64,000 bases of DNA from NCBI GenBank assembly GCA_964363635.1, contig CAYIIU010000002.1:768-64767 (forward strand). Reading direction: 5' to 3'. How positions within the stretch are numbered: position 1 is the first letter of the stretch; every line of letters starts with the position of its first letter. Made by a program: the position numbers and the translations under genes. The notes beneath the pieces were generated by a model. It saw only the letters and a list, made by a program, of their open reading frames with translations. It had not been told where the DNA came from and searched no databases. Shown here piece by piece: positions 3,853-18,365 of this stretch. Source of the DNA: an uncultured archaeon. GTDB taxonomy: Archaea; Iainarchaeota; Iainarchaeia; Iainarchaeales; VGJJ01.

Positions 3853-3930
3853 AAAAAGGATACCGCGCGGCCCGAGAGGGCCCGCGGAGAACATGCGTGG
3901 GGTCATAGGGGCAAAGCCCCTATTGTCATT
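3853..3930 (+). mobile_element. Right-end-like terminus of the decayed IS200-type element
   Basis: GGATACC (3858-3864) is followed by the hairpin GCGCGGCCC-GAGA-GGGCCCGCG (3865-3887), then GAGAAC..., a second hairpin ATAGGGGC-AAA-GCCCCTAT (3905-3923), and TGTCATT ending at 3930. The 150-nt MITE right ends have the same GGATACC-hairpin-GGAG...TCATT architecture. Confidence 0.45.
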
Positions 3931-6508
3931 CAATTACTTTCGGAGGCGAGGCTGAGGTCTCCGGAACGGCGATTCCCACTCCACCATCTACGTATCCTCC
4001 TCCGTAGTACACGCCGCCCAGCCCCGTGTAGTTTCGAATGGCATTGAGGAAGGGCTGAATTTCCTTGACTTTCATTCCGGCTTCCATTCGGATTGTTTTG
4101 GTGGTGGTTTCATCGGTGATGGTAATCGTTTCCACGCTCTCATCCGCACAGCCGGGGCATCCGAGTGTGTCGTCGAGCGCTTTGAATGCGGTCCAATCTA
4201 AGTTCTCCACAACGTCATCGTATTGCGAGTACGCGGGGTTCTCATACGAATTCAAATAACCCAGTTCTCCTCCCGTGAATGTGGTTTGCTTAATTTTTGT
4301 CTTCGTTAATTCCACTTCTTGATACCCGCACGGGCCTGCGCAGAAGCTTCCCTCCACGCGTGAAACTATTTTCAGGTTGGAAGGAATGACCACGTACGGA
4401 ATGGCCTTGATTTCGTGCAAGTCCGTTAAGTCGTTCGCCTTGATCATTTTGTCAGAGATGGTGTACAACACATTCCCGATGAACAAGGAACGCTTGACTT
4501 GGTATTGCCAATCCAAATAATAGCCGGATTTCAAATCGATTTCATCATCGATATGGGTAATGCGTCCGCGCTCTTTGAAACCATCTTCCAGCGTGACGTT
4601 GTACACAAAGGCACCTTGGAACGTGGGTTCACCGTACGCGGGCCAATCTCTCCAGTCTCCAATACCCTTCGTGATTTGGTCTTTTTGGGCGTCGGAGATT
4701 TCATGCAAATAAATGGGCAGCACTAACAGTTCCTTCTCTTTGTCATACAAGAACGCGTGATGGTCCTGCAGGGCAAATGAATCCGTGCCTCGGTCTCCAA
4801 TGATGAGGGAATGCATCTGCACGGGGTTTTCCACATCGCTCACATCAAAGATAGCGAGTTTCATCCCCAAATAGTAGGCGAAGTCTCCCGATTTGCTGGT
4901 TTCGGTGTCCTTTCCAACTCCAATGATGTGCGTGTCATCGATGGGGTGCAAATAGTTTGAATATCCGGGGATTTTGAGTTTTCCTAATACTTTGGGATCG
5001 GCCGGATTGCTCAAATCTAATACAAATAATGGATCAATTTGTCGGAACGTCACCAAGTATGCGCGCTCACCCATGAATCGGGCCGAATAAATTCGCTCGC
5101 CGGGAGCTAAGTCTTCCAGCGCGCCCACTTGTTTCATTTCTTCATTGAACACGTACACGCTATTCATTGACTTCGTGTTGGTGTTTGTTTGAGGATTCCA
5201 TTGTTCATTAACCGTGGTGGCTATTCTGAAGTTTCCCGCGTATTCGTCCATGGAGAACTGGTTGAGCACGTGTCCTAATGCAGTGGCCTTTCCTAAATAT
5301 TCCACGTCTCCACTTTTCAAGGCGAATTTGTGAATGATTGTTTTAGGTGTGTTGTCTTGCGGGTTTGGTAATGGTGGCACCGTGTTGGCTGTTCCAGCAT
5401 CAATACCAACTTTGGTAGTGCCGGTTGTTGTTACCACCGTGTCTCCTTCTCGCTGCGCGATAAGGGGCTTGAGTATGCTGTAGTAATAATTATACTGCGT
5501 GTGGGCCAAATACAAATTTTCCTGCGAAGCATACACGGTTTCCGCACTCCCAACAATGGTTTCCTTGTTCAATTCTTTCGTGCCCACATTCAGCGAGGCA
5601 ATCGTCACAAAGCTCTGCGCATAAATGGGGCGCAAATACCCAATATCCGTTGGAGCGGCTAGGGGCTTCTCGACTCCGTCCTCAAAATAAGGGGGAATGA
5701 TGGACTCGCTGGCGTTTTTGGTTTCGCTGTTCAAAATTTGATAGTCCGGATACGTCTGCATGACGAAATACACATTGTTTCCAACCATGCGCGAAGAAAC
5801 ATAGTTTCCCGCAAAGGCGAGTTCTTTTTCCAGTTTAGGATTAGAAGGATTGGAAATGTCGTACATGTTCACAATCGACTTGGAGTAGCTCCAATATGGA
5901 GAGTAAATGTACCCGCCTTCCCATCCGGGCGCGGCTATTTTGTTTTGGGTGTAGACATCGTTGTACGTGTACGAGGTGCCAAACAGCACGAGCTTGTTTC
6001 CATTAATGAATAATTGCGAAGGAGTAATCGTGTCCAAGTTGAGCGTCTTCACGACACGGGCATCCTCCGCAGGATAGGCGAGGGTGATGACCAGTTTATT
6101 TTTGTAAAAAGCATAAATGTATTTCCCATCCGTTTTAACGATATCCGCCTCATCCACGCCTTGGACTTGGACGTTGGTGTTGGAATAGGCTGGAGCAGGA
6201 GTGGCGCTTGCGCCCCCGCTCGCGTCGGATTTGGATTCGCCAATCGAAGCGGATGCGGGAGTCAACACGTTATCGCGTATCGCATACTGCCCAAGGCCGC
6301 TCTGCTGGGCCTGCGTGAACGTGGCGATGATCTCTTGCTCGCTCGTGAAGCGGGGAATCGTAGCGTCGAGGGTCATGTCGGGAGTGAAAATGGGAATAGT
6401 AGTATTGGGCGCGTTGGCCTGCAACAATGCAAAAATGAATGCCGCTCCTATGATTACGAGGCCGAGGCCCAGCATTGGAATAACCCCTTTGGTCGCTTTA
6501 GTACTCAT
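3926..6508 (-). CDS. Secreted or membrane-anchored beta-propeller domain protein (PF09826-like) with a Cys-rich C-terminal extension
   Basis: It has an N-terminal TM helix. ERIYSARFMGERAYLVTFRQIDPLFVLDLSNPADPKVLGKLKIPGYSNYLHPIDDTHIIGVG is the hallmark block of the Beta_propel family. The C-terminal part carries CAGPCGY and LGCPGCADES. Confidence 0.8.
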   Translation of the reverse strand: MSTKATKGVIPMLGLGLVIIGAAFIFALLQANAPNTTIPIFTPDMTLDATIPRFTSEQEIIATFTQAQQSGLGQYAIRDNVLTPASASIGESKSDASGGASATPAPAYSNTNVQVQGVDEADIVKTDGKYIYAFYKNKLVITLAYPAEDARVVKTLNLDTITPSQLFINGNKLVLFGTSYTYNDVYTQNKIAAPGWEGGYIYSPYWSYSKSIVNMYDISNPSNPKLEKELAFAGNYVSSRMVGNNVYFVMQTYPDYQILNSETKNASESIIPPYFEDGVEKPLAAPTDIGYLRPIYAQSFVTIASLNVGTKELNKETIVGSAETVYASQENLYLAHTQYNYYYSILKPLIAQREGDTVVTTTGTTKVGIDAGTANTVPPLPNPQDNTPKTIIHKFALKSGDVEYLGKATALGHVLNQFSMDEYAGNFRIATTVNEQWNPQTNTNTKSMNSVYVFNEEMKQVGALEDLAPGERIYSARFMGERAYLVTFRQIDPLFVLDLSNPADPKVLGKLKIPGYSNYLHPIDDTHIIGVGKDTETSKSGDFAYYLGMKLAIFDVSDVENPVQMHSLIIGDRGTDSFALQDHHAFLYDKEKELLVLPIYLHEISDAQKDQITKGIGDWRDWPAYGEPTFQGAFVYNVTLEDGFKERGRITHIDDEIDLKSGYYLDWQYQVKRSLFIGNVLYTISDKMIKANDLTDLHEIKAIPYVVIPSNLKIVSRVEGSFCAGPCGYQEVELTKTKIKQTTFTGGELGYLNSYENPAYSQYDDVVENLDWTAFKALDDTLGCPGCADESVETITITDETTTKTIRMEAGMKVKEIQPFLNAIRNYTGLGGVYYGGGYVDGGVGIAVPETSASPPKVIE

Positions 6509-6625: not shown

Positions 6626-6853
6626 CTACTCTTCGGCCGGCATGGAGCGGATGAGGTGTTTGGAGCGGGAGTACGCCCAGAGGATCCCCACCAAGCATGC
6701 GGTGGCGATAAGATAGTATACAAGCGAATCGACGAGGCCGCGGTTCAGCTGCGAAATAATCCCTTCGATGAGGGTGAATGTGAACACCGCCAAAAGGATG
6801 AGGGTACTCGTGAGAAGCAGGATGACCTTGACCGAATCCATGAACTCAGACAT
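6626..6853 (-). CDS. Small two-TM membrane protein
   Basis: 75 aa with two hydrophobic helices. It shares strand and spacing with the pilin-like cluster. Confidence 0.45.
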   Translation of the reverse strand: MSEFMDSVKVILLLTSTLILLAVFTFTLIEGIISQLNRGLVDSLVYYLIATACLVGILWAYSRSKHLIRSMPAEE

Positions 6854-6919: not shown

Positions 6920-7954
6920 TTACCCGCCGTACGTCCAAATGGTATTTGTATCAATGTTCATATCGCTTCCCCGGATAGTAGTGTTGATGTCATACCCCGC
7001 GCGCGTTCCATTGGCGTCGTTGGGCATGGCATATGTGATTGAGTACGTCCAAGGGACGGTGGGTGCTCCGGAGATGGATGTGCCAAACCATTCCGGGTCA
7101 ACTGACGTATCTTCAGAAACGCCTACTTCTAGGCGCTTTACTACCGTGACTCCATTTACATCATATGAGGCGTGAATATTATATCCGCCAATATTTACCG
7201 CGTAACTTTGGTATGTGATATTATGATCGGCATTTACATCCGTGTAATTAATCGTTAAATATACGGCCGCAGGCGGCAACTGCAATATTCCAAGGTCTAC
7301 GTTTGCTGCAACCGACGTGTAGGCAAGTTCTGAATAAATATTTATAGTAATAGAAATGGGATTGAAATTTATATCTGGAGGAAACACGCGAAAACGATTG
7401 TTGTCTGTTCCTTCGCGCCATTGCAATCCGCGGTTGGTTCGTCCCCACAACTTTCCATCTGCGATGGTTTGGTTTAAATCCAAAAAAATGGATGTGTTGG
7501 TGTCTCTTCCAAAACGGAATAAATTTGTTTGATAGCGGAGGAGATTGTCTTCAGTGGAAAGAACATTCGGCCTCTTTCCTGAAAGGGTAATAATGGCCGT
7601 GCCGCTGTTCTGGTCAATGGCAATCGTTTGCCCCGTGAGGGTGTTGAAGTCAAGGGCGATGTCTCGTAACACGCGTGCGGGTGTGGAAATCTGATGAATG
7701 TCGCTCGCATCCAATTGCAGGGTTTGCAAGTGCGAGTATTGCAGCTGCGCGAAAACAACGAGAAAAATGGCAAGGGCAAATGTGGAAAAACTAAGGACAA
7801 AACCCCTCGGTTTTTTTCTAGGACTTGCCTGCCCTTGCGAAGCAACGGGCAGTCCGCCGAACGACCATCGACCTTTTAGAAAAAGGTCGATCAAAAGACC
7901 GAGGGCCCGCATGGAATCGGGCATGGATAATTTGGTCATGGAGAGCCGGGCCAT
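6920..7954 (-). CDS. Hypothetical secreted protein, possibly pilin-like (start uncertain)
   Basis: KKPRGFVLSFSTFALAIFLVVFAQLQ resembles a class III signal peptide (RG|F followed by a hydrophobic helix). It overlaps the upstream pilin-like gene by 19 nt. Confidence 0.5.
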   Translation of the reverse strand: MARLSMTKLSMPDSMRALGLLIDLFLKGRWSFGGLPVASQGQASPRKKPRGFVLSFSTFALAIFLVVFAQLQYSHLQTLQLDASDIHQISTPARVLRDIALDFNTLTGQTIAIDQNSGTAIITLSGKRPNVLSTEDNLLRYQTNLFRFGRDTNTSIFLDLNQTIADGKLWGRTNRGLQWREGTDNNRFRVFPPDINFNPISITINIYSELAYTSVAANVDLGILQLPPAAVYLTINYTDVNADHNITYQSYAVNIGGYNIHASYDVNGVTVVKRLEVGVSEDTSVDPEWFGTSISGAPTVPWTYSITYAMPNDANGTRAGYDINTTIRGSDMNIDTNTIWTYGG

Positions 7955-8364
7955 GTCGTCACCTCCATCACATACATATTAGCATCCGGTGGAGAGGCCA
8001 CGATGAATGTGTGGCGCACGCGCTCGGTTTGAGGGGATTGGATGGAGCAGCCGCTCTTGGTGACGATAAACAGGGGCGTATTCACATCCGGGGAGGGGAA
8101 TGCCGAGACGCTCCCGCAAATGGAAGTGGGCCAGCCATTGATGAATGTCCGCACATCCGTGGTGTTATTTAGAATGACCGCGCGGCTGAGGATGCGGCTC
8201 TGCTCCAGTGTTAATGCCGCATTTTCGGCAAAATTTTGGAGAACCATTTCTTGACGGATGTTCGTTCCTTTATTGGTTGATGCATTGAATGCAAGCGTGA
8301 CAATGACGAATAATACGGTGAGAGCGAGCAATGCATCAATGGCAATCACAAAACCGCGGTGCAT
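7936..8364 (-). CDS. Small archaeal type IV pilin-like protein (class III signal peptide)
   Basis: I trimmed the start to ATG 8364, giving MHRGFVIAIDALLALTVLFVIVTLAF (RG|F, acidic residue, hydrophobic helix). Confidence 0.6.
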   Translation of the reverse strand: MHRGFVIAIDALLALTVLFVIVTLAFNASTNKGTNIRQEMVLQNFAENAALTLEQSRILSRAVILNNTTDVRTFINGWPTSICGSVSAFPSPDVNTPLFIVTKSGCSIQSPQTERVRHTFIVASPPDANMYVMEVTTWPGSP

Positions 8365-8365
8365 A

Positions 8366-8920
8366 CTAATCACTATACACCTGCAGCGTGGCGATAGCGC
8401 CCTGCGACTCATACACGACGGGGAACGTGACCACACTCACTTGATTTTTGTCCACGGGGCTTATTCCAGCGCGTGTTAAAATATTTTTATTAGCATCCGA
8501 AATACTAATGAAAAAATTAAGGTCCTCTATTCCCAATCGACGGGCCAAATCCGGGTAATTAGTGGCATTCCAATCCAAAAAAGCATTCCACTTTTGGGGA
8601 GAGATTTCGACACCATTGTCGGAGACCCCCACGCTCCACACCCCATTTCGATCGGTGTTGGTGTCCCAATACGCAGGGTTTCCGGGACTGCTGAATAATG
8701 TAATGGCCGTGCGGACGGCACGCTGCGTAGTCAAATAATTTTGATGCTCATCCGCGGATTGGTTTTGCAATTGCTGCGTGAGAGCGGAAATAATGGTCAT
8801 GACAAAAAGGAAAATGACAATCGAGAGGAGGGCATCCGTTGAATAGAGCTGTCCCCGCGTGTGAATACGATGCGAATGAGCGGGCGGTGTTGGGATATGA
8901 TTTGGTGGATGGCAGTTCAT
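8366..8920 (-). CDS. Archaeal type IV pilin-like protein (start uncertain)
   Basis: It contains RGQLYSTDALLSIVIFLFVMTIISAL. Its stop at 8366 abuts the next start at 8364. Confidence 0.6.
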   Translation of the reverse strand: MNCHPPNHIPTPPAHSHRIHTRGQLYSTDALLSIVIFLFVMTIISALTQQLQNQSADEHQNYLTTQRAVRTAITLFSSPGNPAYWDTNTDRNGVWSVGVSDNGVEISPQKWNAFLDWNATNYPDLARRLGIEDLNFFISISDANKNILTRAGISPVDKNQVSVVTFPVVYESQGAIATLQVYSD

Positions 8921-9354
8921 GGCTGCACCGCCTGAACGACTAATGAACCATTAGCATCTTTTTGAATCGTAAAAAAGTTTCCGTCGTATAACGGGGGAGT
9001 GGACCATTCCAAATAGGGGATGCGTGACGAAGCATACCCTCGCGCGCTTTGCGCTTCGACGAGACCGTTGCGCAATTGAATAGTCTGCGTTTCCGTTCCT
9101 GCGGGAATAAACAATTGCATTTTGCTCCCAATGGGGGCGCGGGACATTTCAATAATGCCATTAGCCAAAATTTCAGCCGAACGCTCCACGGACTGCTGAG
9201 ATCGAATAGAATCTGAAATAATCATCTGCTGGGCGAAAATGGAGAGGGATATTGAGAGAATAATGAGGAGCAGAGGCAGAATGATCATTATTTCTACTGT
9301 GGCTTGTCCGCGCTTCAAAAATAGTTGTACGGGAATCATCGTTCGTTCCTTCAT
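8917..9354 (-). CDS. Archaeal type IV pilin-like protein
   Basis: KRGQATVEIMIILPLLLIILSISLSIF matches the [KR]GQxxxE class III signal pattern (PF04021-like). It has 4-nt overlaps with both neighbours. Confidence 0.7.
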   Translation of the reverse strand: MKERTMIPVQLFLKRGQATVEIMIILPLLLIILSISLSIFAQQMIISDSIRSQQSVERSAEILANGIIEMSRAPIGSKMQLFIPAGTETQTIQLRNGLVEAQSARGYASSRIPYLEWSTPPLYDGNFFTIQKDANGSLVVQAVQP

Positions 9355-11591
9355 GCCCCATTTTGGTCAAAAATCAAATTCATGTCTGTGAAACCGGTGA
9401 ACCAGTCAATGTACAAGTGAGTGGAATTGGGAATGTTGATGTATGACCCATTATAGCGGTACTCGGAATTGATAAGAGCGGTGGAGAGCATGTCGAGTGT
9501 TCCTGTCATGGGCGCATTAGGATTGACCTGATATTGAGGCGACATTCCCGGAACTCCGGGAACATTGTTTGCCGGATACCAAATGCGAAGGTCATTGGCG
9601 CGCGTGCTTCCTGAGACGGCGCCAATGGCAATAATCCATGCGTTGGAGCTGTTCAAGTCATCTGCGACGCGCAAATACACATTTCGGTCCCCGCTTCCCG
9701 CAAAGCTGCGGAGTTTGAATTCATTCACATCGGTTTGTCCAGCCGAGGGATTGGGCCGTGAGAATGCGAAAGGGGAGATGTTGAAGTCGCCGAGTAAATA
9801 ATTAAACGTATTGCGCGGCCTTGCATGAGCGGATGGGGGAACCGCACTTCTATTTCCATTCGTGTCTAAAAATTCGATGGAAAAATAGTAGGTATATCCC
9901 ACATTCAAATTATCAATGAGCTGCGATGAGGTATTTCCCGCAGAGAAAATGCTTCCCGTGTATGTTGCACTGGCCGCCGCGTCAAAAGCTGTTTGCGTGT
10001 TGATGTCGGTGGTTGCATAGCGAATGTCAACACTGGAAACGGTCCCCGTCTGATTATCATCTCCGGGGAAAGTGAATGAAACCACTATCGATTCGGCGCT
10101 GGGCCCCCCGGCGGCGGAAAAACTGGTCGGAAGGCCGGGTGGAATAGCATCCCCAATGCATCCGTTTCCCAAAACGGGACCGACATACGTGGAACCATCT
10201 TCGAATGTGAGAGCGGGTTGAAACTGCTCGTTGTTATCCGAAATGTTTCCTGAAAAAATGAGCAGGTTGTTCGAACTAATGATAGTTGCGGAAGGAATAT
10301 TATAATCGATGATATTGATATTCGCATCGTCCGCTGCGCTTCCGCTCGAATAAACAAAGCTCCCTCCGAATTTAATGTCAGTCAGGAGAGAATCGTTTTG
10401 GTCGCACTTGGACCAGCCTTTGACGGACATGGAATTGACGGTAATGCTTTTTGTCGGATGCGCGTTTTCCAGCGAAAAATCGAGAAGCTGCGTGCCGGAA
10501 GTATAGGCATTATCCCATGACCAAATGAAATAATTATTCATCATTCGAACATTGGAAGTGAGGCCCAAGATGGTATTATTGGCCCCCGTGTAATCGGAAA
10601 TGGCCAAGGAACCAGTGTACGTTCCTGCCGCAGTACTGGCCGGGACGGCCAGCGTGACATTCACATCCATGCACGATGAACCATCGAGCTGTGAAATGGT
10701 TGAAACGGCAGGATTAATCCACGTGCCGGGGGCATATGAAGAAGGGGTGAACGATATGGATTTGATGGGGGTGCTGCCCGTGTTGCACAATTGAATGGAT
10801 TGCGTGTTGGTGTCCACCCCCAGCGTGTTAAACTCGAGAGCAGATGGGATGACGGTCAGCAAGGCTTGTCCCGCTGAAAATACTTCCACGTTGATAGGAA
10901 TGGTCAGTTGTTCGATGCTCCCACCCAAATTGCTTGAAACCAAAAGGTTTCCCACATAATTTCCCTGAGCGGTCCCTCCAGCACTAAGATTGATATCCAG
11001 CGAATAACTCCCCCCCGATGTAATGACTTTATTGGAAAGGGGGAGGGATGCCCCAACCAGTGTATGCGTCCACGCCAGCGAAAAATTGACATCTGCACTG
11101 TTGGAGCCGGTATTAGTGAATGTCACTCGTGTAGATGTGTTGGAATCGCGCGCCATGGCGACGTAAATGCTTTCTTTGTCACTGACGAGCGAAACCAAGC
11201 TAATGACTACGTAGTTCGAATACGAAATAAGACGGATGCGCTGCAATCCTTCTGATGTGGGGACACCCCCTTGAAGCGATGGCACAGCAGTGGCCGAAAT
11301 GTCGCTTCCGTACAATCGAAGAATAATAGACGTGTTTTGCAACCGCGAATTAGCCTCATCAATTCCTGCGGGAAATGGAAGAATTATTTCACGCACATTC
11401 CCCGGGCCCGAGCGATACACGAGGTTGATTTCCCTCACGAGGCGGTTGAGGCTATTTTGGGCCAAATGAATGGCTTGCTCTTTCTGCAGATTGGAAACGT
11501 GCTCGGTGGTAAAATTAACCAATGCAGCTAAAATAGCGAGGGAAATGGCAAGAACCATCAACAATTCCACACTCGACTGGCCTCGTTTCAT
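9351..11591 (-). CDS. Giant (746 aa) pilin-like adhesin with a class III signal peptide
   Basis: The N-terminus is MKRGQSSVELLMVLAISLAILAALVNF. Beta-sandwich-like segments follow (VTFTNTGSN, QLCNTGSTPIKSISFTPS) and an Fn3-like block (FTFPGDDNQTGTVSSVDIRYA...GYTYYFSIEFLDTNGNRS). It is a paralog of 11691..13997. Confidence 0.8.
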   Translation of the reverse strand: MKRGQSSVELLMVLAISLAILAALVNFTTEHVSNLQKEQAIHLAQNSLNRLVREINLVYRSGPGNVREIILPFPAGIDEANSRLQNTSIILRLYGSDISATAVPSLQGGVPTSEGLQRIRLISYSNYVVISLVSLVSDKESIYVAMARDSNTSTRVTFTNTGSNSADVNFSLAWTHTLVGASLPLSNKVITSGGSYSLDINLSAGGTAQGNYVGNLLVSSNLGGSIEQLTIPINVEVFSAGQALLTVIPSALEFNTLGVDTNTQSIQLCNTGSTPIKSISFTPSSYAPGTWINPAVSTISQLDGSSCMDVNVTLAVPASTAAGTYTGSLAISDYTGANNTILGLTSNVRMMNNYFIWSWDNAYTSGTQLLDFSLENAHPTKSITVNSMSVKGWSKCDQNDSLLTDIKFGGSFVYSSGSAADDANINIIDYNIPSATIISSNNLLIFSGNISDNNEQFQPALTFEDGSTYVGPVLGNGCIGDAIPPGLPTSFSAAGGPSAESIVVSFTFPGDDNQTGTVSSVDIRYATTDINTQTAFDAAASATYTGSIFSAGNTSSQLIDNLNVGYTYYFSIEFLDTNGNRSAVPPSAHARPRNTFNYLLGDFNISPFAFSRPNPSAGQTDVNEFKLRSFAGSGDRNVYLRVADDLNSSNAWIIAIGAVSGSTRANDLRIWYPANNVPGVPGMSPQYQVNPNAPMTGTLDMLSTALINSEYRYNGSYINIPNSTHLYIDWFTGFTDMNLIFDQNGA

Positions 11592-11610
11592 GAGTACACA
11601 AAAAACAAGA

Positions 11611-11625
11611 CTCTTTATATTTCAC
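11611..11625 (-). promoter_or_regulatory. TATA-like box for the 746-aa pilin-like gene
   Basis: The minus strand reads GTGAAATATAAAGAG, centred about 26 nt upstream of ATG 11591, consistent with a leaderless archaeal promoter. Confidence 0.45.
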
Positions 11626-11690
11626 TCGACCTTTTTAGAAAAAAGCCTGGAGAGAGGCCATTTGGATGGGTTTGCGTACTGGCATTGCCT

Positions 11691-13997
11691 TTATGAAGAA
11701 GGCCCCTCCATTATCTCATCGCCGAACGAGTTGTTGAAAACGATGTTGAAATCGGTGATTCCATCCAGAATATCGATGTACACGTGGTTGGGCCGGCGCA
11801 TCAGCACTCGATTACCCCCGATCCGATAACCTGAGTTGAATACATCCGTATCCAAGAGGTCGAAGTGGCCGGACGTGGAAAAGGATGAGTTTCCATCGTA
11901 TTGGGGGGTGGCCGCTGGAATTCCACTAGCATTTCCAGCCGGATACCATATGCGCGAGCGGCTCATGGTGTAGAGGCCGGTCCCGCCGTTTTGGGTGAAT
12001 GTAATCGCTCCAATCCAGGAATGATCGGTGTTGTAATCATCCACGATCCGGATCACCATATTATTATCCGCTCCCGCAGCGGCCACCGAAAAAATGTTCA
12101 AATCGAATTGAGTGATATCGGCAACGTCTATTGGTGCAGGGGTTGGTATTTCCGGAGAAAAATTGACAAAATTAAAATCGTTTCCCGACCATGAAAAACG
12201 ATTCCATGCGACTGAATTCGGCGAATTCGAATAACCACTATTATTGTCCACGTTGTCGAAAAAGAGGGCGTAAAAATAATATTTCATCCCCACGTTCAAA
12301 TCCGAAAAAACCCAACTAACAGGGGTGCCTCCGGGAACGATCCCTTGGTTGGGGTCAGTGTAATAGACATCCGGATAAATCACGACTGAATTTTGATCGG
12401 GAATGGGTGATTGCGTGAGAGAATAGTTGAATACGTATGACGTGGCGAGACCGGAATAATTATCATCCCCCGGAATCGTGAACTGAAGCTGAACGGATTG
12501 GGGTTCCGGACCGGGATTCGCCGTCAAGTTAAGGATGGTTGCAGGAAATGTATTGTCATCGTCGCAGGATCCTCCAAACGTACTGGTCGTGAATTGCGTC
12601 CCATCCGAAAAATTTACATCGGCCACGAAGGGCTCATTCTGATCCTGAATGTTATTGCTGAACGAAAGGGCATTGTCCGCGTAGCTGGTCAAAATAGGAA
12701 TATTAAAGTCGGTGATGTCTGCGGTGTTTCCATCTTGGAGCGAACCGATGAAGCGGCTGGTGTTGTTCACAACTAGGCTGTTCCACAATGAATGCTGCGA
12801 ATCGCACGACCACCATCCTCTCAGCGTGACGGCAGAAATTTGAATGGGTTTTCGTCCGCGATTGGAAAGAGTAAAGTCGTAAATGGATTGCACGCTCCGG
12901 ATGGCGGGGCTCCAGTCCCATGAAAATACGCTGCTCATTCCCAACACATTGATGGTTACGGGAACGGAAATTGCATTCGCGCCCGTGTAATCCGAAATGG
13001 ACAATGACCCCGCAAAAGGGCTGATGGAATTGGTGGGCACGGACACGTTTACATCAATCGTCCGGCAAGTTTGTGCATTCAGCGAATCGATGGTGGAAAA
13101 AGAATTCAACCATGAACCGGGGGCGCCGGACGATGGAGTGATAGAAATGGTCTTGATGGGGGTGGTGCCGACATTGCATAGTTGAAACGTCGTGGAGTTG
13201 GTGTCGATGCCGAATGTGCTCATGGAAATGGACGAGGGGAAAGCCACCAAATTAGGAGAAGAGCCGACGTTCACATTGACTTGAATGGGAATGATGAGCG
13301 TTTCCACTTTAGAAGGAAATGCTGCCGTCACCGTAATTTTTCCGGCGTACGTTCCCACGGCGGAAGCGCTGGCGAAAAAATTTACATCAAATGGCAAAGC
13401 GTCTGCTGCGTCAAGTATCCCAGAACTCGGACTGATAACAATGTTCACATCGGGGTATGACCAATTGGAGGCAATGGCAATGCTTGCTTGGTTGGCCGGA
13501 ATATCATTCGTCAAATGATTCGTGAGAATGACCGTCGTGCTCGAACTCGTGTTTCGGTCAAGAGAGGAAAAGATAGAAGTGGGATTTGAACTAATGTCTA
13601 ATTCTCCAATCATGACAAAACCATCAAAGGCGCGCACGCGGATATTCTGCAAGCCCGAATTGGTTGGGAGTGTTCCCACCAAGTTTGGAATGGCCGTTCC
13701 CGAAATATACGACCCATACACATTCACAATGATAGAGTGGTCTTCAATCCGTGTTCCAGTCGTTTCAACCCCCTCCGGCCACGTCAATTGCAAAAACCTC
13801 GTCGCCCCCGGACCCTGCGTGTACAATTCATCCGCCGCGTCGATAAGCATTTGAACGGACAACTCGGCCGTTTTGGCGGCACGCTGTTTTTCAATATAAT
13901 TCACTTGCTCTGCGGTAAAATTGACTAAAACGGCAAGAACAATGAGCGCAACGGCAACGATAGTCATTAATTCTATGGTGGACTGCCCTTTATCCAT
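11691..13997 (-). CDS. Giant (768 aa) pilin-like adhesin with a class III signal peptide
   Basis: The N-terminus is MDKGQSTIELMTIVAVALIVLAVLVNF. Blocks shared with the 746-aa paralog include QLCNVGTTPIKTISITPSSGAPGSW, SLSISDYTGANA, FTIPGDDNYSG and RIWYPAGNASGIPAATPQY. Confidence 0.8.
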   Translation of the reverse strand: MDKGQSTIELMTIVAVALIVLAVLVNFTAEQVNYIEKQRAAKTAELSVQMLIDAADELYTQGPGATRFLQLTWPEGVETTGTRIEDHSIIVNVYGSYISGTAIPNLVGTLPTNSGLQNIRVRAFDGFVMIGELDISSNPTSIFSSLDRNTSSSTTVILTNHLTNDIPANQASIAIASNWSYPDVNIVISPSSGILDAADALPFDVNFFASASAVGTYAGKITVTAAFPSKVETLIIPIQVNVNVGSSPNLVAFPSSISMSTFGIDTNSTTFQLCNVGTTPIKTISITPSSGAPGSWLNSFSTIDSLNAQTCRTIDVNVSVPTNSISPFAGSLSISDYTGANAISVPVTINVLGMSSVFSWDWSPAIRSVQSIYDFTLSNRGRKPIQISAVTLRGWWSCDSQHSLWNSLVVNNTSRFIGSLQDGNTADITDFNIPILTSYADNALSFSNNIQDQNEPFVADVNFSDGTQFTTSTFGGSCDDDNTFPATILNLTANPGPEPQSVQLQFTIPGDDNYSGLATSYVFNYSLTQSPIPDQNSVVIYPDVYYTDPNQGIVPGGTPVSWVFSDLNVGMKYYFYALFFDNVDNNSGYSNSPNSVAWNRFSWSGNDFNFVNFSPEIPTPAPIDVADITQFDLNIFSVAAAGADNNMVIRIVDDYNTDHSWIGAITFTQNGGTGLYTMSRSRIWYPAGNASGIPAATPQYDGNSSFSTSGHFDLLDTDVFNSGYRIGGNRVLMRRPNHVYIDILDGITDFNIVFNNSFGDEIMEGPSS

Positions 13998-14170
13998 AGC
14001 CGAAGCACCCTTTTGGGGCTTTTAACCGTGATGCTAAAATGAGCACATATCAAATTACATTTTTCGACTATTTTCTATCCTTTTTTTCTTTTCGGGTTTC
14101 GAAAGATAATTTTCGTTTGACACAATCGGCCGGCCTAATTCTTGTTCAGTTTCTTTCCGCGCATTGCCCG

Positions 14171-15037
14171 CTATTCTGCCTCCCGTTTCGCGGCATGTTC
14201 CAATTTTGGAAATCCGCGCGCATCTTCATTCCGCGTGATTTCGGTTGTGACCCGTTCTCCCAGCATATTGAAGATGAGCTCTAAATCATTCGGCCTTTTT
14301 AGAAAAAAGGCCGGCGAAAAAGGTTGATACCTCGCCCTTTAGGGCGACCTTTGTCGCCCATTGTTTGGCGAGCGAGCGCGCGAGCAAGTGACGTTCTTGC
14401 CCATATGGATACCGTGGCCTTTAGGCCACGGAGGAAGTCATTCATGTGGTCGCGCACGTTTTCTTTTTTCAGTCCTTTGAAATCCCTGTATTCGTTGTGT
14501 GTCATCCCAAATGTCGCTTTTGAAATCTCCGCCGTGAGGATGGCGAAATCTCTTCCTTCTTCCACTCCTCGTTTTTTTCCACTCGCTGGTTAATTCATCC
14601 CGGACCACGATGCCCCTCACTCTCTTTTCGATCCAATCTTCTGAATACCCCTTTGCGCGGTACGTTTCTCGTATCCGTTTTTGGGCCAGTTCCGGATCTT
14701 CAATCTCCTGCACGCGTTCGTATCCCACTTTTGCCAGCCATCGCTTGAAGGGTTCAGCTTTGGGAGATGGAATGGATTGGATGATGCGAAACATATTCTG
14801 AGTGTTGGCACAGTCCGTTTCGTATAATTTACCATCCGAAGAGGGCAATTTCAGTTGTAAACAAAATGTTAACAACTGAGTTTCCCGTCCTTTGAGAACA
14901 CCCCAATACTGTCGCGGGGATGGGCTTTCAGTCAAAGCCTCTACTACATCTACCACCGAAAAATGCCATTCTTTGTTGTGCCAAACCCTTCGAATTTTTT
15001 TATCCTGAAAAACAACCAGTGCGCTTTCTTGAGTCAT
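14171..15037 (-). pseudogene. dinD: dinD-like (DNA-damage-inducible protein D / Bro-N domain) gene, disrupted twice
   Basis: N-terminal VVFQDKKIRRVWHNKEWHFSVVDVV...IQSIPSPKAEPFKRWLAKVGYERVQEIEDPE is DinD-like. The frame breaks at the T7/A7 run 14572-14578, and one fewer A restores EWKKRGVEEGRDFAILTAEISKATFG. A 152-nt element (14291-14442) splits DHMND|LELIFNMLGE, and the remaining ORF continues to a TAG at 14171. Confidence 0.75.
14291..14442 (+). mobile_element. MITE copy A (about 150 nt, hairpin-ended, TCATT-flanked; IS200/IS605-derived PATE-like)
   Basis: The left flank is TCATT. The element reads CGGCCTTTTTAGAAAAAAGGCCG, then GATACC-TCGCCC-TTTA-GGGCGA, then GATACC-GTGGCC-TTTA-GGCCAC-GGAGGAAGTCATT. 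Near-identical copies lie at 24584-24736 and 33000-33154. Removing the element plus one TCATT restores the dinD frame. Confidence 0.75.
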
Positions 15038-15326
15038 ACAACCACCCCGCGATCATGATATGTACTTGGTTGAAGGGAATAAAAACACGCGGAAGCCAAA
15101 CCGCCGAAAATGGGTATTACCCCTATCTGGGTCGATTTAGGCCAGTCTTTTATAAAACGCTCGAACCCCAAATGGTCTAGAAGACTAATTTAGAGCTTTG
15201 AAAAAGGGTTCCAGACCTTCAAACTTTTTAGAAAAGTTTGATCAAAAACGGTTTTGATGAACCTTCATTGCAAACCTAAAGGCTTGCGATGCCAGCAACG
15301 AAAGTTTGCTTGGTTTTCAAAAGTTT

Positions 15327-15341
15327 GCAGCGATGGCGGAG
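15327..15341 (+). repeat. Duplicate of the first 15 nt of tRNA-Ser
   Basis: GCAGCGATGGCGGAG is identical to 15420-15434. It is directly preceded by TTTTCAAAAGTTT, the same palindromic element that abuts the 5' ends of tRNA-Arg and tRNA-Leu. Confidence 0.8.
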
Positions 15342-15419
15342 CAGTCCGGCAGCCTTTTAGGAAAAGGCTGGCGAAAACTGGGGAAAACCCCGGGGAAAAC
15401 TGTGATGCAATTGCTGAAT

Positions 15420-15503
15420 GCAGCGATGGCGGAGTGGTCTAACGCGCCGGTCTGGAAAGCCGGTCTCCTCACGGAGGCACGAGTTCAAATCTCGTTCGCT
15501 GCG
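15420..15503 (+). tRNA. tRNA-Ser (anticodon GGA), class II, CCA not encoded
   Basis: Manual cloverleaf: acceptor GCAGCGA/TCGCTGC, 3-bp D stem GCG/CGC, anticodon stem CCGGT/GCCGG with loop CTGGAAA, long variable arm CTCC-TCAC-GGAG, and T arm ACGAG-TTCAAAT-CTCGT. Confidence 0.9.
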
Positions 15504-15616
15504 TCACTCCTTTTTCTTTTTGAGAAAAAGAAAAAGTGTGCGGCCAGTCAAAAAGAAAAACGAGGGGTATTTCTTTGAAATACCCCGATCTCGGTGTAGC
15601 CGGACGAAAACGGCTG

Positions 15617-15638
15617 TTCTAAATCTCGTTCGCTGCGT
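15617..15638 (+). repeat. Partial duplicate of the tRNA-Ser 3' end (T loop to discriminator)
   Basis: TTCTAAATCTCGTTCGCTGCGT compares with TTCAAATCTCGTTCGCTGCGT at the genuine tRNA 3' end. Confidence 0.8.
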
Positions 15639-15804
15639 ATCAAATAGAAATCAAACGCACTCGAAGCCTTTTTATCCAACCGAAGAGGATTGAACGATAT
15701 GCACGAAGACACATTATACCACAAAGACTTTCAACAGAGCCCTTTCAACAGAGCCGTGGATTCGAGTTTGTAATAAATTGCGTAATCGTCTCACTATACT
15801 CAAA

Positions 15805-16416
15805 TTATCTTTTGCGTGTTCTTTGATAACCCCTCCGATGGATCGTTATTTTGGAAGGGGTTGGTGCTCTTGACCATCGAGCCAGTTTATCTATTAACTT
15901 TTCGACTGCTCGTGCTCGCCGCATTCGTTCCGTGCTTGATTCTGGATTTTCTCCTTTTCGTGAAAAACCAACTTCAGCAAAATTACCTTCTTTCATAAAA
16001 CCATCAAACGTTGCTTGCTCTTCTCCTGATAATCTTTCTCGCATTTGAGAAGCCCATTCGTGGTCTTCCAATTGTTGAAAACCCCCATCTGTCGAAATAT
16101 TTCTCACACGCTTCAGTGGAACAGCTCGCGATGCAATCTTTCTTGATACAATCCTTCTTTTTTGACGAAGTGTTCTAAAGGTATTAATCACCGCCCGCTT
16201 GATGTAGGTCTCTCGGTCAGCAGCGGTCTCTCCTCGCATGCCCGATTGTAATAATCGCAGGCTTGTTTGTTGAGCTAAATCCTGCCATGCTACCTTTCGG
16301 CTCCCTGTTTGATTATTAGTCACACGTTGAGCATAATCAAGAATGAATGGGAAATATTCTTCTATGCGCTTTCGTGTATCTGGAAGAATGGGTGTTCGAA
16401 CTTTTGAAGTTGGCAT
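15805..16416 (-). CDS. ECF sigma-70-like protein (region 2 plus region 4 signatures)
   Basis: Region-2-like: WQDLAQQTSLRLLQS...ETYIKRAVINTFRTLRQKRR. Region-4-like: LSGEEQATFDGFMKEGNFAEVGFSRKGENPESSTERMRRARAVEKL. Confidence 0.6.
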   Translation of the reverse strand: MPTSKVRTPILPDTRKRIEEYFPFILDYAQRVTNNQTGSRKVAWQDLAQQTSLRLLQSGMRGETAADRETYIKRAVINTFRTLRQKRRIVSRKIASRAVPLKRVRNISTDGGFQQLEDHEWASQMRERLSGEEQATFDGFMKEGNFAEVGFSRKGENPESSTERMRRARAVEKLIDKLARWSRAPTPSKITIHRRGYQRTRKR

Positions 16417-16718
16417 ATTTCAGTCAGGAGACGGAAGAATAAAAAACAGAGCTAAAACGACTATTTGTTTAATCTGAGGAATTAAACTCAAGAAGAAGGC
16501 ATTATCGCCCAATTAATTTGGTGTGGAGCGCGGATAAAGCTCCGTTTGACCAAACCAAAGCTAAATCGAGGAGTTTTCTTCCAAGGAATAGAGAGATATT
16601 CAGACTCTGTCAGATAGAACTTTTCGCGGTAGATGGTCATTTCAGTTGTAAACAAAATGTGTACAACTGATTTTCGTTCCCTTTGAGGACTCAATACCTA
16701 TATGTAGGAGGACGTTGC

Positions 16719-17462
16719 TTATAACTTTTGAAGCAGGTCAATCACTTTATTTGGGTCTGTTTTTAGCATGGTAGATGCATTGCTAATCGTTCCGTCGATG
16801 GTGAATCGTTCTAATTTCTCTTTGAATTTTTGCACTGCTTTTTTGTTTAACCCTTTGGTTCGTATTCGATGCCCATTTTCGATGAGCCAGCTACGGGGGT
16901 CGCTGTTGAGCAGTGCATAAAGGTCAGCAATATCTTTCGTGCGCTTGAAACTGTCTCGTCGTTCGGGGGTTGATTTTAGTTTCATTTGGATTAGAATTTT
17001 GGACGAGGGCACCATAATCTGAATATCGTTGATTTGGATATAGGCTCGTTCTTTTTCAAAGACTTTCTTAAGCAGCGGTTCAGGCATCACATGTTCCATT
17101 TTGATAGGAGTTGCAATGTCCACGTAGATAATTGAAGTAAAGTGAAAAGGATGAGTTTTGGTTTCGATCAAACTCAATTCTCTTTCGGTTTCACTGTCAA
17201 AGTATCGTGCCCACCGAAAGGTGGAATGGGGATGAAAACCCATTCTCCTTAGTTTTTCCTCAACGGAACGGAGGGTTATTTTGGTTGGATCAAAGAAAAT
17301 ATCAATATCACGAGAACCCATATGTTCCACTCCATTATTTTTTAGGGTGTAATGGACGGCCCACCCTCCCATAAGACCAATGTCTTTCCTTTCTTCCGAG
17401 TTTAGACTCTGGAAGAACACGTAGAGCAGTTCATCGGACTTTTCAATCATCAACTTTTCCAT
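16719..17462 (-). CDS. Nucleotidyltransferase-fold protein (AbiEii-like putative toxin)
   Basis: GLMGGWAVHYTL...GSRDIDIFFDP is a G(G/S)...DxD NTase motif. A C-terminal KRTKDIADLYALL follows. It is 7 nt downstream of a wHTH-like partner. Confidence 0.55.
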   Translation of the reverse strand: MEKLMIEKSDELLYVFFQSLNSEERKDIGLMGGWAVHYTLKNNGVEHMGSRDIDIFFDPTKITLRSVEEKLRRMGFHPHSTFRWARYFDSETERELSLIETKTHPFHFTSIIYVDIATPIKMEHVMPEPLLKKVFEKERAYIQINDIQIMVPSSKILIQMKLKSTPERRDSFKRTKDIADLYALLNSDPRSWLIENGHRIRTKGLNKKAVQKFKEKLERFTIDGTISNASTMLKTDPNKVIDLLQKL

Positions 17463-17469
17463 GTGAACA

Positions 17470-18219
17470 TCACAACCGGTTGTTTAACCATTTTTCGATG
17501 AGAAAATGGGCATGCTCTTCCGCCAATCCCCCAAAACTTAGTAGGTCGGCTAATAGAATGGGGGCAGGGGCCACTGAAAAACCCTTTAACTTTGTTGCAT
17601 TCCGGAAGAAAGATTCTTGGGATGACGATAAGAGAGGAATAAGGAAAAGGTTTGCTTGGTTTTTGGATGCCTTCAGGAATTTCTGGGAGAGGAGGTACTT
17701 ATTCCAGTTTTCTTCCTCGTCCTTGTGGATATAGGTATGTACTTGATCGGTTTTCACGTAGGGGTGATAGAGTTCGCTTCCAGCGAAAAGAGTGAACGCG
17801 TAAGGAAGTTTAGATGCGTGAATCACTTTCAAGGTCTTTGAAAAATCGTGAGGCGAATAATAATTGTTCGTCTTCAAACTGGCGAATGGTCGAGCCAATG
17901 AAATGAGTTTGAGAATGTCATTTACCTTTGTCACGCGATACTCAGTAGTTTTGCTATCCTTTACTACGTGTCCATTTTTCTCCAGCTCTTTTACAAATGT
18001 AAAAGTGGGGCCATACGTCAAGGCCTTATCCTGGTCAGAAAAGGAAGCCTTTTTGGAAACGTGGCTCTTTTCCTTACGATTCCCTTCGGCTGCTTTCTTT
18101 TGTAGCTCGTAAATACTCCACTTTTTCTCCTTATTCTTCAGCATCCACAAGAGAGATGCCAATCGCTTTTCGGTAAGCTCGAGCATACTATATTCGTTTA
18201 ACGAATAGTATATAAACAT
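17470..18219 (-). CDS. Putative wHTH partner (AbiEi-like antitoxin or regulator) of the NTase
   Basis: The N-terminal SLLWMLKNKEKKWSIYELQKKAA...NGHVVKDSKTTEYRVTKV has a winged-helix-like pattern, and the gene is operonic with 16719..17462. Confidence 0.4.
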   Translation of the reverse strand: MFIYYSLNEYSMLELTEKRLASLLWMLKNKEKKWSIYELQKKAAEGNRKEKSHVSKKASFSDQDKALTYGPTFTFVKELEKNGHVVKDSKTTEYRVTKVNDILKLISLARPFASLKTNNYYSPHDFSKTLKVIHASKLPYAFTLFAGSELYHPYVKTDQVHTYIHKDEEENWNKYLLSQKFLKASKNQANLFLIPLLSSSQESFFRNATKLKGFSVAPAPILLADLLSFGGLAEEHAHFLIEKWLNNRL

Positions 18220-18288
18220 AGCGAATACCTCATTTTGATCCTATTTCACAATAGGATGGAATTATTAAGTCTAACCAGTTGTATTATT

Positions 18289-18352: not shown

Positions 18353-18365
18353 TTCCCTTTTCTTT

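Follow-up and report, generated by a model that had tools for sequence, protein, structure and literature searches.

Described archaeal and bacterial relatives

Archaeal clade 1, or System 1, comprises the Epd pilus of Methanococcus maripaludis and its relatives (Makarova et al. 2016, PMC4858521; Sivabalasarma & Albers 2026, bioRxiv 10.64898/2026.04.22.720090), and its loci have been reported from methanogens and some DPANN archaea (PMC4858521; bioRxiv 10.64898/2026.04.22.720090). Large class III signal proteins, small pilin-like proteins, an ATPase, and a platform protein make up the Sulfolobus bindosome (PMC4858521; bioRxiv 10.64898/2026.04.22.720090). Modular type IV pilins have been described from bacteria, i.e. 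PilB and PilC of Streptococcus sanguinis and CofB of ETEC (Raynaud et al. 2021, PMC8179133); the survey of modular pilins in that study covered bacteria only.

We analyzed a stretch of 64,000 nucleotides (hereafter the window) from contig CAYIIU010000002.1. Six consecutive genes in it (g1-g6) probably encode the subunit (pilin) module, i.e. the adhesins and minor pilins, of an Epd/Tad-like type IV filament machine of archaea, in which a single ATPase is combined with a split platform protein. Judging from related loci, this machine appears to be conserved in Iainarchaeota/Diapherotrites and close DPANN relatives. Its kind is known, but its protein families have no prior description, and the pilin families of the locus display no detectable sequence similarity to described ones. 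The source of the DNA is a small groundwater archaeon (Iainarchaeota/Diapherotrites).

Gene cluster and class III-type N-termini

The initial annotation had placed six pilin-like genes with class III signals on the minus strand, and all six ORFs are present (the slash follows the conserved Gly):

13997..11691, minus strand: g1, ORF of 768 aa, MDKG/QSTIEL
11591..9351, minus strand: g2, ORF of 746 aa, MKRG/QSSVEL
9354..8917, minus strand: g3, ORF of 145 aa (140 aa from the ATG at 9339), KRG/QATVE
8920..8366, minus strand: g4, ORF of 184 aa, TRG/QLYSTD
8364..7936, minus strand: g5, read from the sequence, 142 aa from the ATG at 8364, MHRG/FVIAID
7954..6920, minus strand: g6, ORF of 344 aa, PRG/FVLSF
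14020..14025, minus strand: TTAAAA, candidate archaeal TATA box read from the sequence, 22 nt upstream of the g1 ATG
11613..11646, minus strand: g1-g2 spacer element, an oligo-T run GGCTTTTTTCT followed by ATATAAAG 22 nt upstream of the g2 ATG

The genes all run in one direction and are tightly packed, with junctions that overlap or nearly abut, in agreement with the operon-like grouping proposed earlier. The accompanying claim that most junctions overlap is roughly right, because three of the five do so (ATGA overlaps at g2/g3 and g3/g4, and 19 nt at g5/g6), whereas g1 and g2 are separated by 99 nt and g4 and g5 by 1 nt if the ATG at 8364 is used. The TTAAAA motif is a possible archaeal TATA box; with its spacing of 22 nt to the g1 start codon, a leaderless or near-leaderless transcript would result. 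The g1-g2 spacer may combine a second promoter with a terminator or attenuator. In one related locus (L003), the two giant genes overlap and have no spacer.

All six consecutive genes (13997..6920) carry a class III-type N-terminus, consisting of [K/R]-G, a Q or F, and a stretch of about 20 hydrophobic residues. A FlaFind-like rule, which asks for [KRHS][GA], an uncharged hydrophobic stretch, and an upstream start codon, was run on every stop-to-stop segment of 50 aa or more in the whole window (555 segments). It returned eight matches in seven ORFs, five of them being g1-g5; the remaining two are the beta-propeller gene downstream of these and, at 51111-51551, an unrelated multi-TM ORF. The series of such N-termini is not a chance effect. 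This type of prediction, suggested as a check in the initial annotation, recovered g1-g5 but narrowly missed g6, which carries the motif but has a hydropathy of about 1.85 by hand calculation (cut-off 2.0) because of two Gln residues. The suggested search with the PF04021 and PF07790 models left the six proteins unrecognised: none reached the Pfam threshold for either family or for TadE.

Comparison with orthologues in eight related loci showed that the leaders, 1 to about 50 aa in length, are unconserved, and that conservation begins exactly at [K/R/H/S]-[G/A]; the following residue is Q or F. An acidic residue is found as Glu +5 in g1, g2, and g3, as well as in a 150-aa pilin of the relatives (see below), and as Asp +6 in g4 and g5; g6 has none. 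Even where g4 identity drops to 22-25%, the loci retain this pattern.

All six belong to the type IV pilin-like proteins with class III signals. If the N-termini were ordinary signal anchors of six unrelated membrane-anchored surface proteins, with a superficial likeness to pilins, the failure of all six to reach the thresholds of the Pfam pilin families and the lack of a peptidase or machinery gene in the window would be expected. This explanation is extremely improbable given that conservation sets in precisely at [KR]G behind unconserved leaders of very different lengths and that the acidic-residue pattern is conserved; the homology of g3 to the N-terminal module of the giants and the strict association with one ATPase gene and a pair of platform genes in seven related loci, both described below, also argue against it. 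For pilin-like precursors, the N-termini point to cleavage after the conserved Gly, which would be carried out by a class III signal peptidase encoded elsewhere.

Giant modular pilins and small pilin-like proteins

The giant proteins g1 and g2 are 35% identical over their full length (E = 6e-147). The g1 leader comprises three residues (MDK) before G/Q. In the AlphaFold model of g1 (pLDDT 77), a helix of 55 residues (7-61) and a small beta head (66-130) are followed by:

~135-350: two Ig-like domains
~355-480: beta-sandwich domain
~485-595: Fn3-like 'PGDD' domain
~600-755: variable C-terminal beta domain

Beyond their pilin module, the giants carry about 630 aa of such Ig-like, Fn3-like, and beta-sandwich domains. 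Foldseek matched g1 to Ig/Fn3 arrays, and g2 gave weak Pfam matches to NPCBM_assoc, a HYDIN-type Ig domain, and Pur_ac_phosph_N; its score against Class_IIIsignal (14 bits) was below threshold. Both proteins are modular pilins with grafted beta-sandwich domains, as the initial annotation had proposed on the grounds of beta-sandwich and Fn3-like modules. Structure prediction, named there as a check for an N-terminal helix with grafted domains, delivered this architecture for g1 and a comparable helix for g6 (see below). Each giant has 16 N-glycosylation sequons, and charged residues account for only about 12% (12.5% in g1) versus about 26% in the cytoplasmic enzymes, a composition in keeping with surface proteins. 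The 17 full-length homologues of g1 are without exception unnamed or annotated as 'hypothetical'.

Conservation is uneven along the giants. The C-terminal domain is the least conserved part, with an identity to g1 of 0.27 as against 0.56-0.60 for the pilin module, Ig2, and D4; distant relatives have only the first ~515 residues in common with g1 and carry other modules at their C-termini. The variable distal domain would be the likely ligand-binding end. The use as an attachment organelle by a host-dependent archaeon, suggested in the initial annotation, would be a speculative reading. Locus L004 has a single giant gene, whose N-terminus looks, by eye, more similar to g2 than to g1.

With the bacterial modular pilins, the giants share (i) a small pilin module with functional modules grafted C-terminally, (ii) a stand-alone paralogue of the pilin module, here g3, and (iii) appended modules that are diverse and exchangeable. 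They differ in their class III signal, as opposed to the bacterial N-methylation motif, and in having at least five appended domains, whereas a bimodular design is the most prevalent in bacteria (PMC8179133).

Aligned to the giant family with hhalign, g3 covers the first ~112 residues of the giants (probability 96%, E = 2.3e-9, 111 columns) and is a stand-alone version of the g1/g2 pilin module. Its scores for TadE (19 bits) and Class_IIIsignal (15.7 bits) were both below threshold. Via their g3-like module, g1 and g2 would join the filament, each projecting a stalk of ~630 aa.

The remaining small proteins show no detectable similarity to solved pilins. In g4, the leader has 22 residues before the Gly; none of its 41 homologues has a Pfam domain, and the named ones are exclusively 'hypothetical proteins' of Diapherotrites or Micrarchaeota. 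Two conserved Cys residues are found in g5, whose orthologue alignment has a mean column identity of 67%. The g6 leader, at least 37 aa, is unusually long for a class III signal, and the absence of an acidic residue from the N-terminal segment is kept in the distant locus L011. Its AlphaFold model, of moderate confidence (pLDDT 66), consists of a helix (8-59) and a beta-rich domain without significant fold match.

Four small pilin-like genes in a row, with one conserved member lacking the acidic residue of the others (g6, like GspK/PilK), recall the PilHIJK/GspHIJK priming complex, although similarity in sequence or fold is not detectable and the acidic residue of g4 and g5 is Asp +6 instead of Glu +5. 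By analogy with such bacterial systems, from which the roles of individual subunits are drawn, g3-g6 would form a complex at the tip that primes assembly. Since g6 alone among them is devoid of an acidic residue near the N-terminus, it would be the likely cap.

Assembly genes of related loci and candidate accessory parts

A cognate ATPase, a platform gene, a major pilin, and an A24 prepilin peptidase are all missing from the window. The single T2SSE gene that the window does contain lies 28 kb away and is a truncated paralogue, and the position of the assembly genes is taken by mobile-element genes, followed by the contig end. In seven related loci, by contrast, this gene set leads into genes for a T2SSE ATPase and two TadC-like T2SSF platform proteins, one matching the N-terminal and the other the C-terminal half of FlaJ/UpsF. 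The earlier remark that no peptidase, ATPase, or platform gene is adjacent is therefore accurate for the window but, with respect to ATPase and platform, does not describe the system; the gap is a local peculiarity of this contig. A prepilin peptidase was found neither in the window nor in the related loci read. The ATPase of the relatives is nearest to archaeal GspE (2OAP), FlaI, and CpaF. Together with the platform, it would extract the hydrophobic N-terminal helices, held in the membrane until then, into a helical filament.

The next gene after the platform genes encodes a pilin of ~150 aa in four of the seven loci, namely those extending far enough. Its first 30 residues hardly vary between distant loci and display a Flp/Epd-like GQxxxEY motif, and it alone among the proteins tested from these loci passed PF04021 (two of two tested). 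This pilin is likely the major subunit, probably forming the shaft, and g1-g6 are probably not the whole filament. Were the giants themselves the main subunits, a thick 'bottle-brush' fibre with an Ig-domain stalk on every subunit would result. Their N-termini are the most canonical in the window (short leader, Glu +5, long hydrophobic helix) and they head the operon in all related loci. Yet the near-invariant start of the small pilin is what is expected of a shaft subunit, no other tested protein passes PF04021, packing with a 630-aa appendage per subunit would be sterically demanding, and known modular pilins are of low abundance with a proposed tip position (PMC8179133), which makes such a fibre quite improbable.

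Possibly, no long pilus is built, and the ATPase, platform, and small pilin-like proteins make only a short pseudopilus or membrane-proximal scaffold, with g1 and g2 as cargo that is held at the surface via the class III N-termini and forms a coat or capture layer. The parts list is the same as that of the Sulfolobus bindosome (BasABC, BasE, BasF), i.e. large class III signal proteins, three to four small pilin-like proteins, an ATPase, and a platform protein, and the relatives' ATPase matches the BasE model (E = 4e-42). The score of 145 bits is, however, far under the BasE cut-off (1000) and is exceeded by that of the FlaI model. Moreover, g1 and g2 have no solute-binding (substrate-binding-protein) domain, an ABC transporter is not linked, and the strongly conserved GQxxxEY pilin in the relatives' operon suggests a real filament. 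We consider a bindosome-like display unlikely.

A filament machine with separate shaft and minor pilins has its closest archaeal counterpart in Epd/System 1, with which it shares one secretion ATPase, two TadC-like platform genes, several class III signal minor pilins per operon, two large putative adhesins in the locus, and the Flp-like GQxxxEY N-terminus. Differences are that the large proteins here lack DUF2341 and are themselves pilins, that an EppA-type peptidase and a FleN/MinD gene are missing from the loci read, and that the candidate major pilin is ~150 aa long, has a beta domain, and is encoded within the operon, whereas that of Epd is a ~70-aa stand-alone gene. The bacterial Tad pilus (Flp, TadE, TadF, TadG; TadA/CpaF, TadB/TadC) is similar with respect to the split platform protein, the ATPase (related to CpaF, E = 6e-40), the Flp-like G/xxxxEY pilin N-terminus, and the weak match of g3 to TadE. 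This match is below threshold, however, no secretin or outer-membrane part is present here, and the giants have no Tad counterpart of comparable architecture.

The functional unit extends beyond the region initially annotated, as it includes g7 and, in this subclade, g8:

6853..6626, minus strand: g7, 75 aa, two hydrophobic segments (two-TM), conserved in related loci
6508..3926, minus strand: g8, 860 aa, membrane-anchored beta-propeller protein, PF09826 (Pfam Beta_propel, E = 1e-166)

No Pfam family was assigned to g7 at threshold. Its orthologues (L001, L002, L003, L005, L011, L012, and L013) follow g6 in this subclade and precede the giant gene in distant relatives. In close relatives, g8 lies in synteny between the pilin set and the ATPase; it was not found in the distant loci L011-L013, and the orthologues compared have no conserved [KR]G motif at the N-terminus. 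A beta-propeller protein encoded alongside pilins, as in this subclade, recalls the pairing of the bacterial priming complex with the PilY1/PilC tip adhesin, although the propeller here belongs to another family (PF09826) and is absent from distant relatives. Both g7 and g8 would be accessory parts of the filament machine.

Cluster layout and N-termini

The six consecutive minus-strand ORFs that the initial annotation placed between 13997 and 6920 are present exactly as it described them. With the two genes that follow, the region reads:

13997-11691, minus strand: g1, giant modular pilin of 768 aa
11591-9351, minus strand: g2, giant modular pilin of 746 aa
up to 6920, minus strand: g3, g4, g5 and g6, small pilin-like genes of 145, 184, 142 and 344 aa
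6853-6626, minus strand: g7, two-TM protein of 75 aa
6508-3926, minus strand: g8, PF09826 beta-propeller protein of 860 aa

The compact junctions reported before were also recovered (ATGA overlaps at g2/g3 and g3/g4, and a 19-nt overlap at g5/g6). If the ATG at 8364 is used, g4 and g5 are separated by one base, and the only spacer in the cluster is the 99 nt between g1 and g2. The cluster is intact, with a GC content of 0.48-0.49, near that of the ArgRS/LeuRS region (0.47-0.48). As the organism is an archaeon, judging by the archaeal RNase P RNA at 39321-39576, a sigma-70 promoter and terminator scanner, unsuitable for such a host, was set aside, and TATA-like elements were read by eye. Where homologues of the cluster genes have a taxon name, it is Candidatus Diapherotrites or Candidatus Iainarchaeum, and identical copies of g1 and g8 occur on Hainich groundwater metagenome contigs.

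In all six ORFs, a basic residue and Gly precede a Gln or Phe, behind which comes a stretch of some 20 hydrophobic residues. When a FlaFind-like rule was applied to every stop-to-stop segment of 50 aa or more in the 64-kb window (555 in all), it picked out seven ORFs with eight matches between them. Since five of these ORFs are g1-g5, the clustering is not due to chance. In g6 the motif is present and its hydropathy, calculated by hand, falls just below the strict cut-off. Eight related loci were gathered (L001/L007, L002/L008, L003, L004, L005/L009, L011, L012, and L013), one labelled Iainarchaeum and one Micrarchaeota. Across these loci and the six families, the leaders that precede a [K/R/H/S]-[G/A] dipeptide are unconserved and 1 to ~50 residues long, and orthologue alignments of all six families show conservation setting in exactly at the dipeptide. 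On sequence grounds, such a variable leader followed by a conserved start would be the pattern expected when a leader is removed and the mature N-terminus is retained; that the N-termini are plain signal anchors is a less likely explanation. We infer class III cleavage of these proteins, and likewise their localisation and binding.

Curated models fell short throughout: none of the six proteins reached the gathering score of PF04021, PF07790, or PF07811 (TadE). PF04021 (Class_IIIsignal) scored 14.0 bits on g2 and 15.7 bits on g3 (cut-off 23.7), and TadE 19.0 bits on g3 (cut-off 22.9); g1, g4, g5, and g6 matched neither, and PF07790 (archaeal Pilin_N) matched none of the six. The assignment therefore draws on motif, conservation, structure, and context, not on a database hit. 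Peptidase_A24 was not found among the multi-TM ORFs of the window scanned with Pfam (the matches were EamA, Na_Ca_ex, and SfLAP), nor was a prepilin peptidase of the A24 family found in the related loci examined.

An acidic residue near the mature N-terminus distinguishes the families, namely Glu at +5 in g1, g2, and g3 and Asp at +6 in g4 and g5, with none in g6. The same pattern recurs in L011 and L013, though the g4 orthologues there are only about 22-26% identical to that of the window. The leader of g6 before the conserved RG/F is at least 37 aa long, or 48 aa when counted from the first ATG (window 7810-7954, minus strand), and those of its orthologues measure 5-17 aa. No in-frame ATG, GTG, or TTG lies nearer the motif, and the g6 leader may reflect either a non-canonical start or a genuinely long leader.

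Giant pilins and small pilin-like proteins

The giants g1 and g2 are paralogues with 35% identity from end to end. Their description as modular pilins held up in profile comparison, AlphaFold, Foldseek, and weak Pfam matches, each giant combining a g3-like pilin module with Ig-like/Fn3-like domains. Profile-profile comparison shows homology between g3 and the N-terminal ~112 residues of the giants (probability 96%, E 2.3e-9). The giants thus consist of a g3-like pilin module and ~630 aa of grafted domains; by the same homology, g3 itself would be predicted to adopt a pilin fold of helix and beta head. The pilin-type N-terminal helix with grafted domains, which had been proposed as a structural check, is seen in the AlphaFold model of g1 (17-sequence alignment, mean pLDDT 77). 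A continuous helix (residues 7-61) is followed by a seven-stranded beta head (66-130) and a row of beta-sandwich domains; pLDDT in the helix-plus-head stretch is mostly 85-91, but 64-79 at residues 51-70. Foldseek searches of the whole model against the PDB returned HYDIN/ASH-type Ig arrays, contactins, receptor phosphatases, and alpha-2-macroglobulins, which confirm the Ig-like/Fn3-like type of the modelled domains and say nothing on function. Weak Pfam matches of g2 comprised NPCBM_assoc, HYDIN-type Ig, and Pur_ac_phosph_N.

Both giants are Asn/Ser/Thr-rich, with few charged residues and 16 N-glycosylation sequons each, a composition typical of archaeal surface proteins. Each has four Cys, and those of g1 are invariant across the family. 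One grafted domain can be followed well beyond the family:

g1 residues ~485-595, window ~12210-12545, minus strand: Fn3-like domain, motif F-T-x-P-G-D-D
g2 residues ~481-590, window ~9820-10150, minus strand: Fn3-like domain, motif F-T-x-P-G-D-D

Thousands of unrelated giant proteins contain this domain in repeated form, with up to 39 copies per protein and lengths of up to 6858 aa. One of these proteins, from an Elusimicrobiota bacterium, carries the annotation of a DUF2341 protein.

Within the family, conservation declines along the giant: the helix, the head, Ig2, and the fourth domain keep an identity to g1 of 0.56-0.60, but the value is 0.34 for the Fn3-like domain and 0.27 for the C-terminal one. 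An exhaustive profile search yielded ~12 clusters (at 50% identity) of full-length relatives. Four relatives (P0124, P0152, P0156, and P0162) share only the first ~515 residues with the giants and differ in their C-termini; all four have class III N-termini, and P0152 is labelled Diapherotrites. Giants across the family range from 725 aa to the 1532 aa of P0162, in which putative LamG-like segments were noted by eye. In the giant pilin of L013 (7038-9410), whose gene is broken by an assembly gap, the fourth domain, a beta-sandwich, is present twice in tandem, visible as two near-identical stretches of ~110 aa; this is a further sign of module shuffling in the giant family.

For the small proteins, PDB profile searches of g3-g6 against solved pilins gave nothing significant; the best match was geopilin (E 0.65), covering the hydrophobic helix only. 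The model of g6 consists of a helix (8-59) followed by beta strands; its pLDDT is 66 for the whole model and drops below 50 over residues 31-57. A fold search with it found no match below E 0.01; the weak ones, to beta sandwiches of the lectin-like and spike-NTD type, were left uninterpreted. A common origin of g4, g5, and g6 was considered and dropped, as hhalign aligns only their first 16-26 residues and none can be claimed beyond the N-terminus. The g4 family has 41 members in 5.8 billion clusters and a scan of 185,579 species genomes for the g6 motif gave three loci, so the system is confined to a small DPANN group.

Operon in related loci and comparison with known systems

Close relatives share a fixed gene order: (i) one or two giant genes; (ii) genes of ~140, ~175, ~145, and ~305 aa, corresponding to g3-g6; (iii) a two-TM protein of 71-87 aa; (iv) a PF09826 beta-propeller protein of ~850 aa; (v) a T2SSE secretion ATPase of about 606-712 aa; (vi) two T2SSF (TadC-like platform) genes; and (vii) a pilin of ~150 aa with the N-terminus RGQGTTEYLIILA. 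A glycosyltransferase gene lies between the beta-propeller and ATPase genes in one locus only. In total, the pilin set is linked to the ATPase and the two T2SSF genes in seven related loci. In L011, L012, and L013 the order is a KaiC-like ATPase, a 74-aa two-TM protein, a giant, four small genes, the T2SSE ATPase, and two T2SSF genes; L011 and L012 then have the ~150-aa pilin gene; in L013 the contig stops after the second T2SSF gene. These distant loci keep the order, and the beta-propeller gene is absent from all three. Nine or ten genes therefore make up the core of the operon, with the propeller as a lineage-specific extra.

In the relatives, one T2SSF gene covers the N-terminal half and the other the C-terminal half of the UpsF and FlaJ models, so the two form a split platform. 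PDB and NCBIfam searches place the ATPase no more finely than nearest to archaeal GspE (2OAP, E 3e-72), FlaI, and CpaF. The ~150-aa pilin is recognised by PF04021, with 24.4 bits against the cut-off of 23.7; its first 30 residues are almost invariant among distant loci, and its C-terminal part is beta-rich. It is the leading candidate for the building block of the shaft, and filaments built of the giant subunits are less likely. The gene was located as follows:

L007, 18021-18482: candidate major pilin
L009, 17125-17574: candidate major pilin
L011, 18167-18619: candidate major pilin

Two Cys are conserved near its C-terminus, the last at most 3 residues from the end, an arrangement reminiscent of the D-region, closed by a disulfide bond, in bacterial type IVa pilins.

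Among described kinds, the nearest is the clade 1 or System 1 archaeal type IV filament of methanogens and some DPANN. Its gene set has an ATPase and two TadC genes, together with five or more minor pilins and a pair of large adhesins (PMC4858521; bioRxiv 10.64898/2026.04.22.720090). As in System 1 (Epd-like), two platform genes accompany the ATPase, in the relatives only. Unlike there, (i) the giants are themselves pilins and have no DUF2341 (no match on g1 or g2 at E<=1 in Pfam); (ii) the locus has no dedicated peptidase, which is EppA in System 1; and (iii) the candidate major pilin, with its ~150 aa and beta-rich C-terminal part, is encoded inside the operon, whereas that of System 1 has ~70 aa and no globular domain. 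Modular pilins, that is a pilin module with one or more modules not specific to pili, are established in bacteria (PMC8179133), and the giants resemble them in their grafted domains and in the exchange of C-termini among relatives. In the literature compared, a part of the field, no equivalent large modular pilin was found in archaea.

The main rival interpretation is that g1 and g2 are displayed in the manner of a bindosome, with no filament. A Bas system would likewise use class III signals, but on solute-binding proteins, and neither g1 nor g2 has a solute-binding domain; moreover, the BasE model scores 144.7 bits on the ATPase of the relatives, far under its cut-off of 1000. The acidic-residue pattern fits the bacterial PilHIJK/GspHIJK complex and is conserved; no homology or fold match to that complex was found. 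By the mechanism we propose, g3-g6 would form a priming complex of this type capped by g6, the giants would insert via their g3-like module, leaving the variable distal domains exposed, and the 150-aa pilin would polymerise beneath them. More tentatively, and as a possibility we consider rather improbable as it stands, the giants and g3-g6 may together correspond, in archaea, to the minor-pilin priming complex and tip adhesin of bacteria, with g6 as a Glu-less cap and exchangeable distal modules setting binding, possibly to a host or partner cell. The beta-propeller protein g8 was rejected as a PilY1 homologue: unlike the PilY1/PilC tip adhesins, it belongs to another Pfam family, matching PF09826 (Beta_propel) and LVIVD only, and a sequence search gave no solved homologue for it.

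Archaeal type IV filament loci are diverse, and DPANN genomes hide pilins among 'hypothetical' proteins (PMC6393860); the cluster cleanly defines one such hidden system. Its observation in the initial annotation was confirmed and the interpretation given there was largely right, with host attachment kept as a possible role. What is new is a conserved operon of pilin families that are found in neither Pfam nor NCBIfam, an incremental gain rather than a new principle. The variable ends of the giants are concrete candidates for surface- or cell-contact molecules of small groundwater archaea, and the acidic-residue pattern offers a handle on whether archaeal filaments, like bacterial ones, prime from a capped tip complex. 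If the giants and g3-g6 are such a counterpart of the bacterial priming complex and tip adhesin, tip-first priming by a minor-pilin set would be common, perhaps ancestral, to both domains, and the C-terminal cassettes of the giants would serve as readable markers of partner specificity in uncultured Iainarchaeota.

Missing machinery and mobile elements in the window

By tblastn, the cognate ATPase, both platform proteins, and the 150-aa pilin of the relatives are not in the window. The only match, at 31% identity, was:

41844-42851, plus strand: T2SSE-family ATPase ORF of 335 aa, stopping just past the Walker B region

It has no continuation in any frame and no platform gene beside it, and is probably a truncated paralogue. 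Of the NCBIfam models, that of the TadA conjugal-transfer ATPase matches best, but below cut-off. The earlier statement that no assembly genes are adjacent is thus correct for the window but does not extend to the system, as seven related loci have ATPase and platform genes. Their place, and that of the major pilin, is taken in the window by the elements at 198-3432:

198-668: IS200-like Y1 transposase
654-1141: HicA/HicB-like pair, by eye
1302-2606 and 2437-3432: two Fic-domain genes, ORFs overlapping

GC content is 0.41-0.43 in this Fic/transposase region against 0.48-0.49 in the cluster. The source contig (~65.6 kb) ends within about 1.6 kb of the window, and an independent assembly, an 11-kb Hainich groundwater contig with g8, breaks at the identical place. 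No database record was found for the Fic protein of the window that would extend the contig leftwards.

On the other side of the cluster, the HIT gene lies ~300-400 nt from g1 in the relatives and at 19943-20353 in the window; the intervening ~6 kb (window ~14000-19900) are absent from the relatives and contain:

14438-15037: Bro-N gene
15419-15505: tRNA-Ser
16719-17462: AbiEii toxin gene

The 3' end of the tRNA-Ser, CGTTCGCTGCGT, is repeated at about 15622, 18341, and 19260, and the segment looks like tandem elements integrated at this tRNA. A sigma70_r2-like ORF also lies within it. A further, probably mobile segment was found at a distance:

53620-57774, plus strand: conjugation-type T4SS module, including a multi-TM protein with a weak T4SS_pilin match

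The module also encodes a PrgI-family protein and a 749-aa VirB4/TraG-P-loop/HerA-like ATPase, and is probably part of an integrated conjugative element. Finally, a tRNA-Leu (GAG) on the minus strand (37440-37526) was called by ARAGORN, with the Rfam tRNA model silent at its gathering score.
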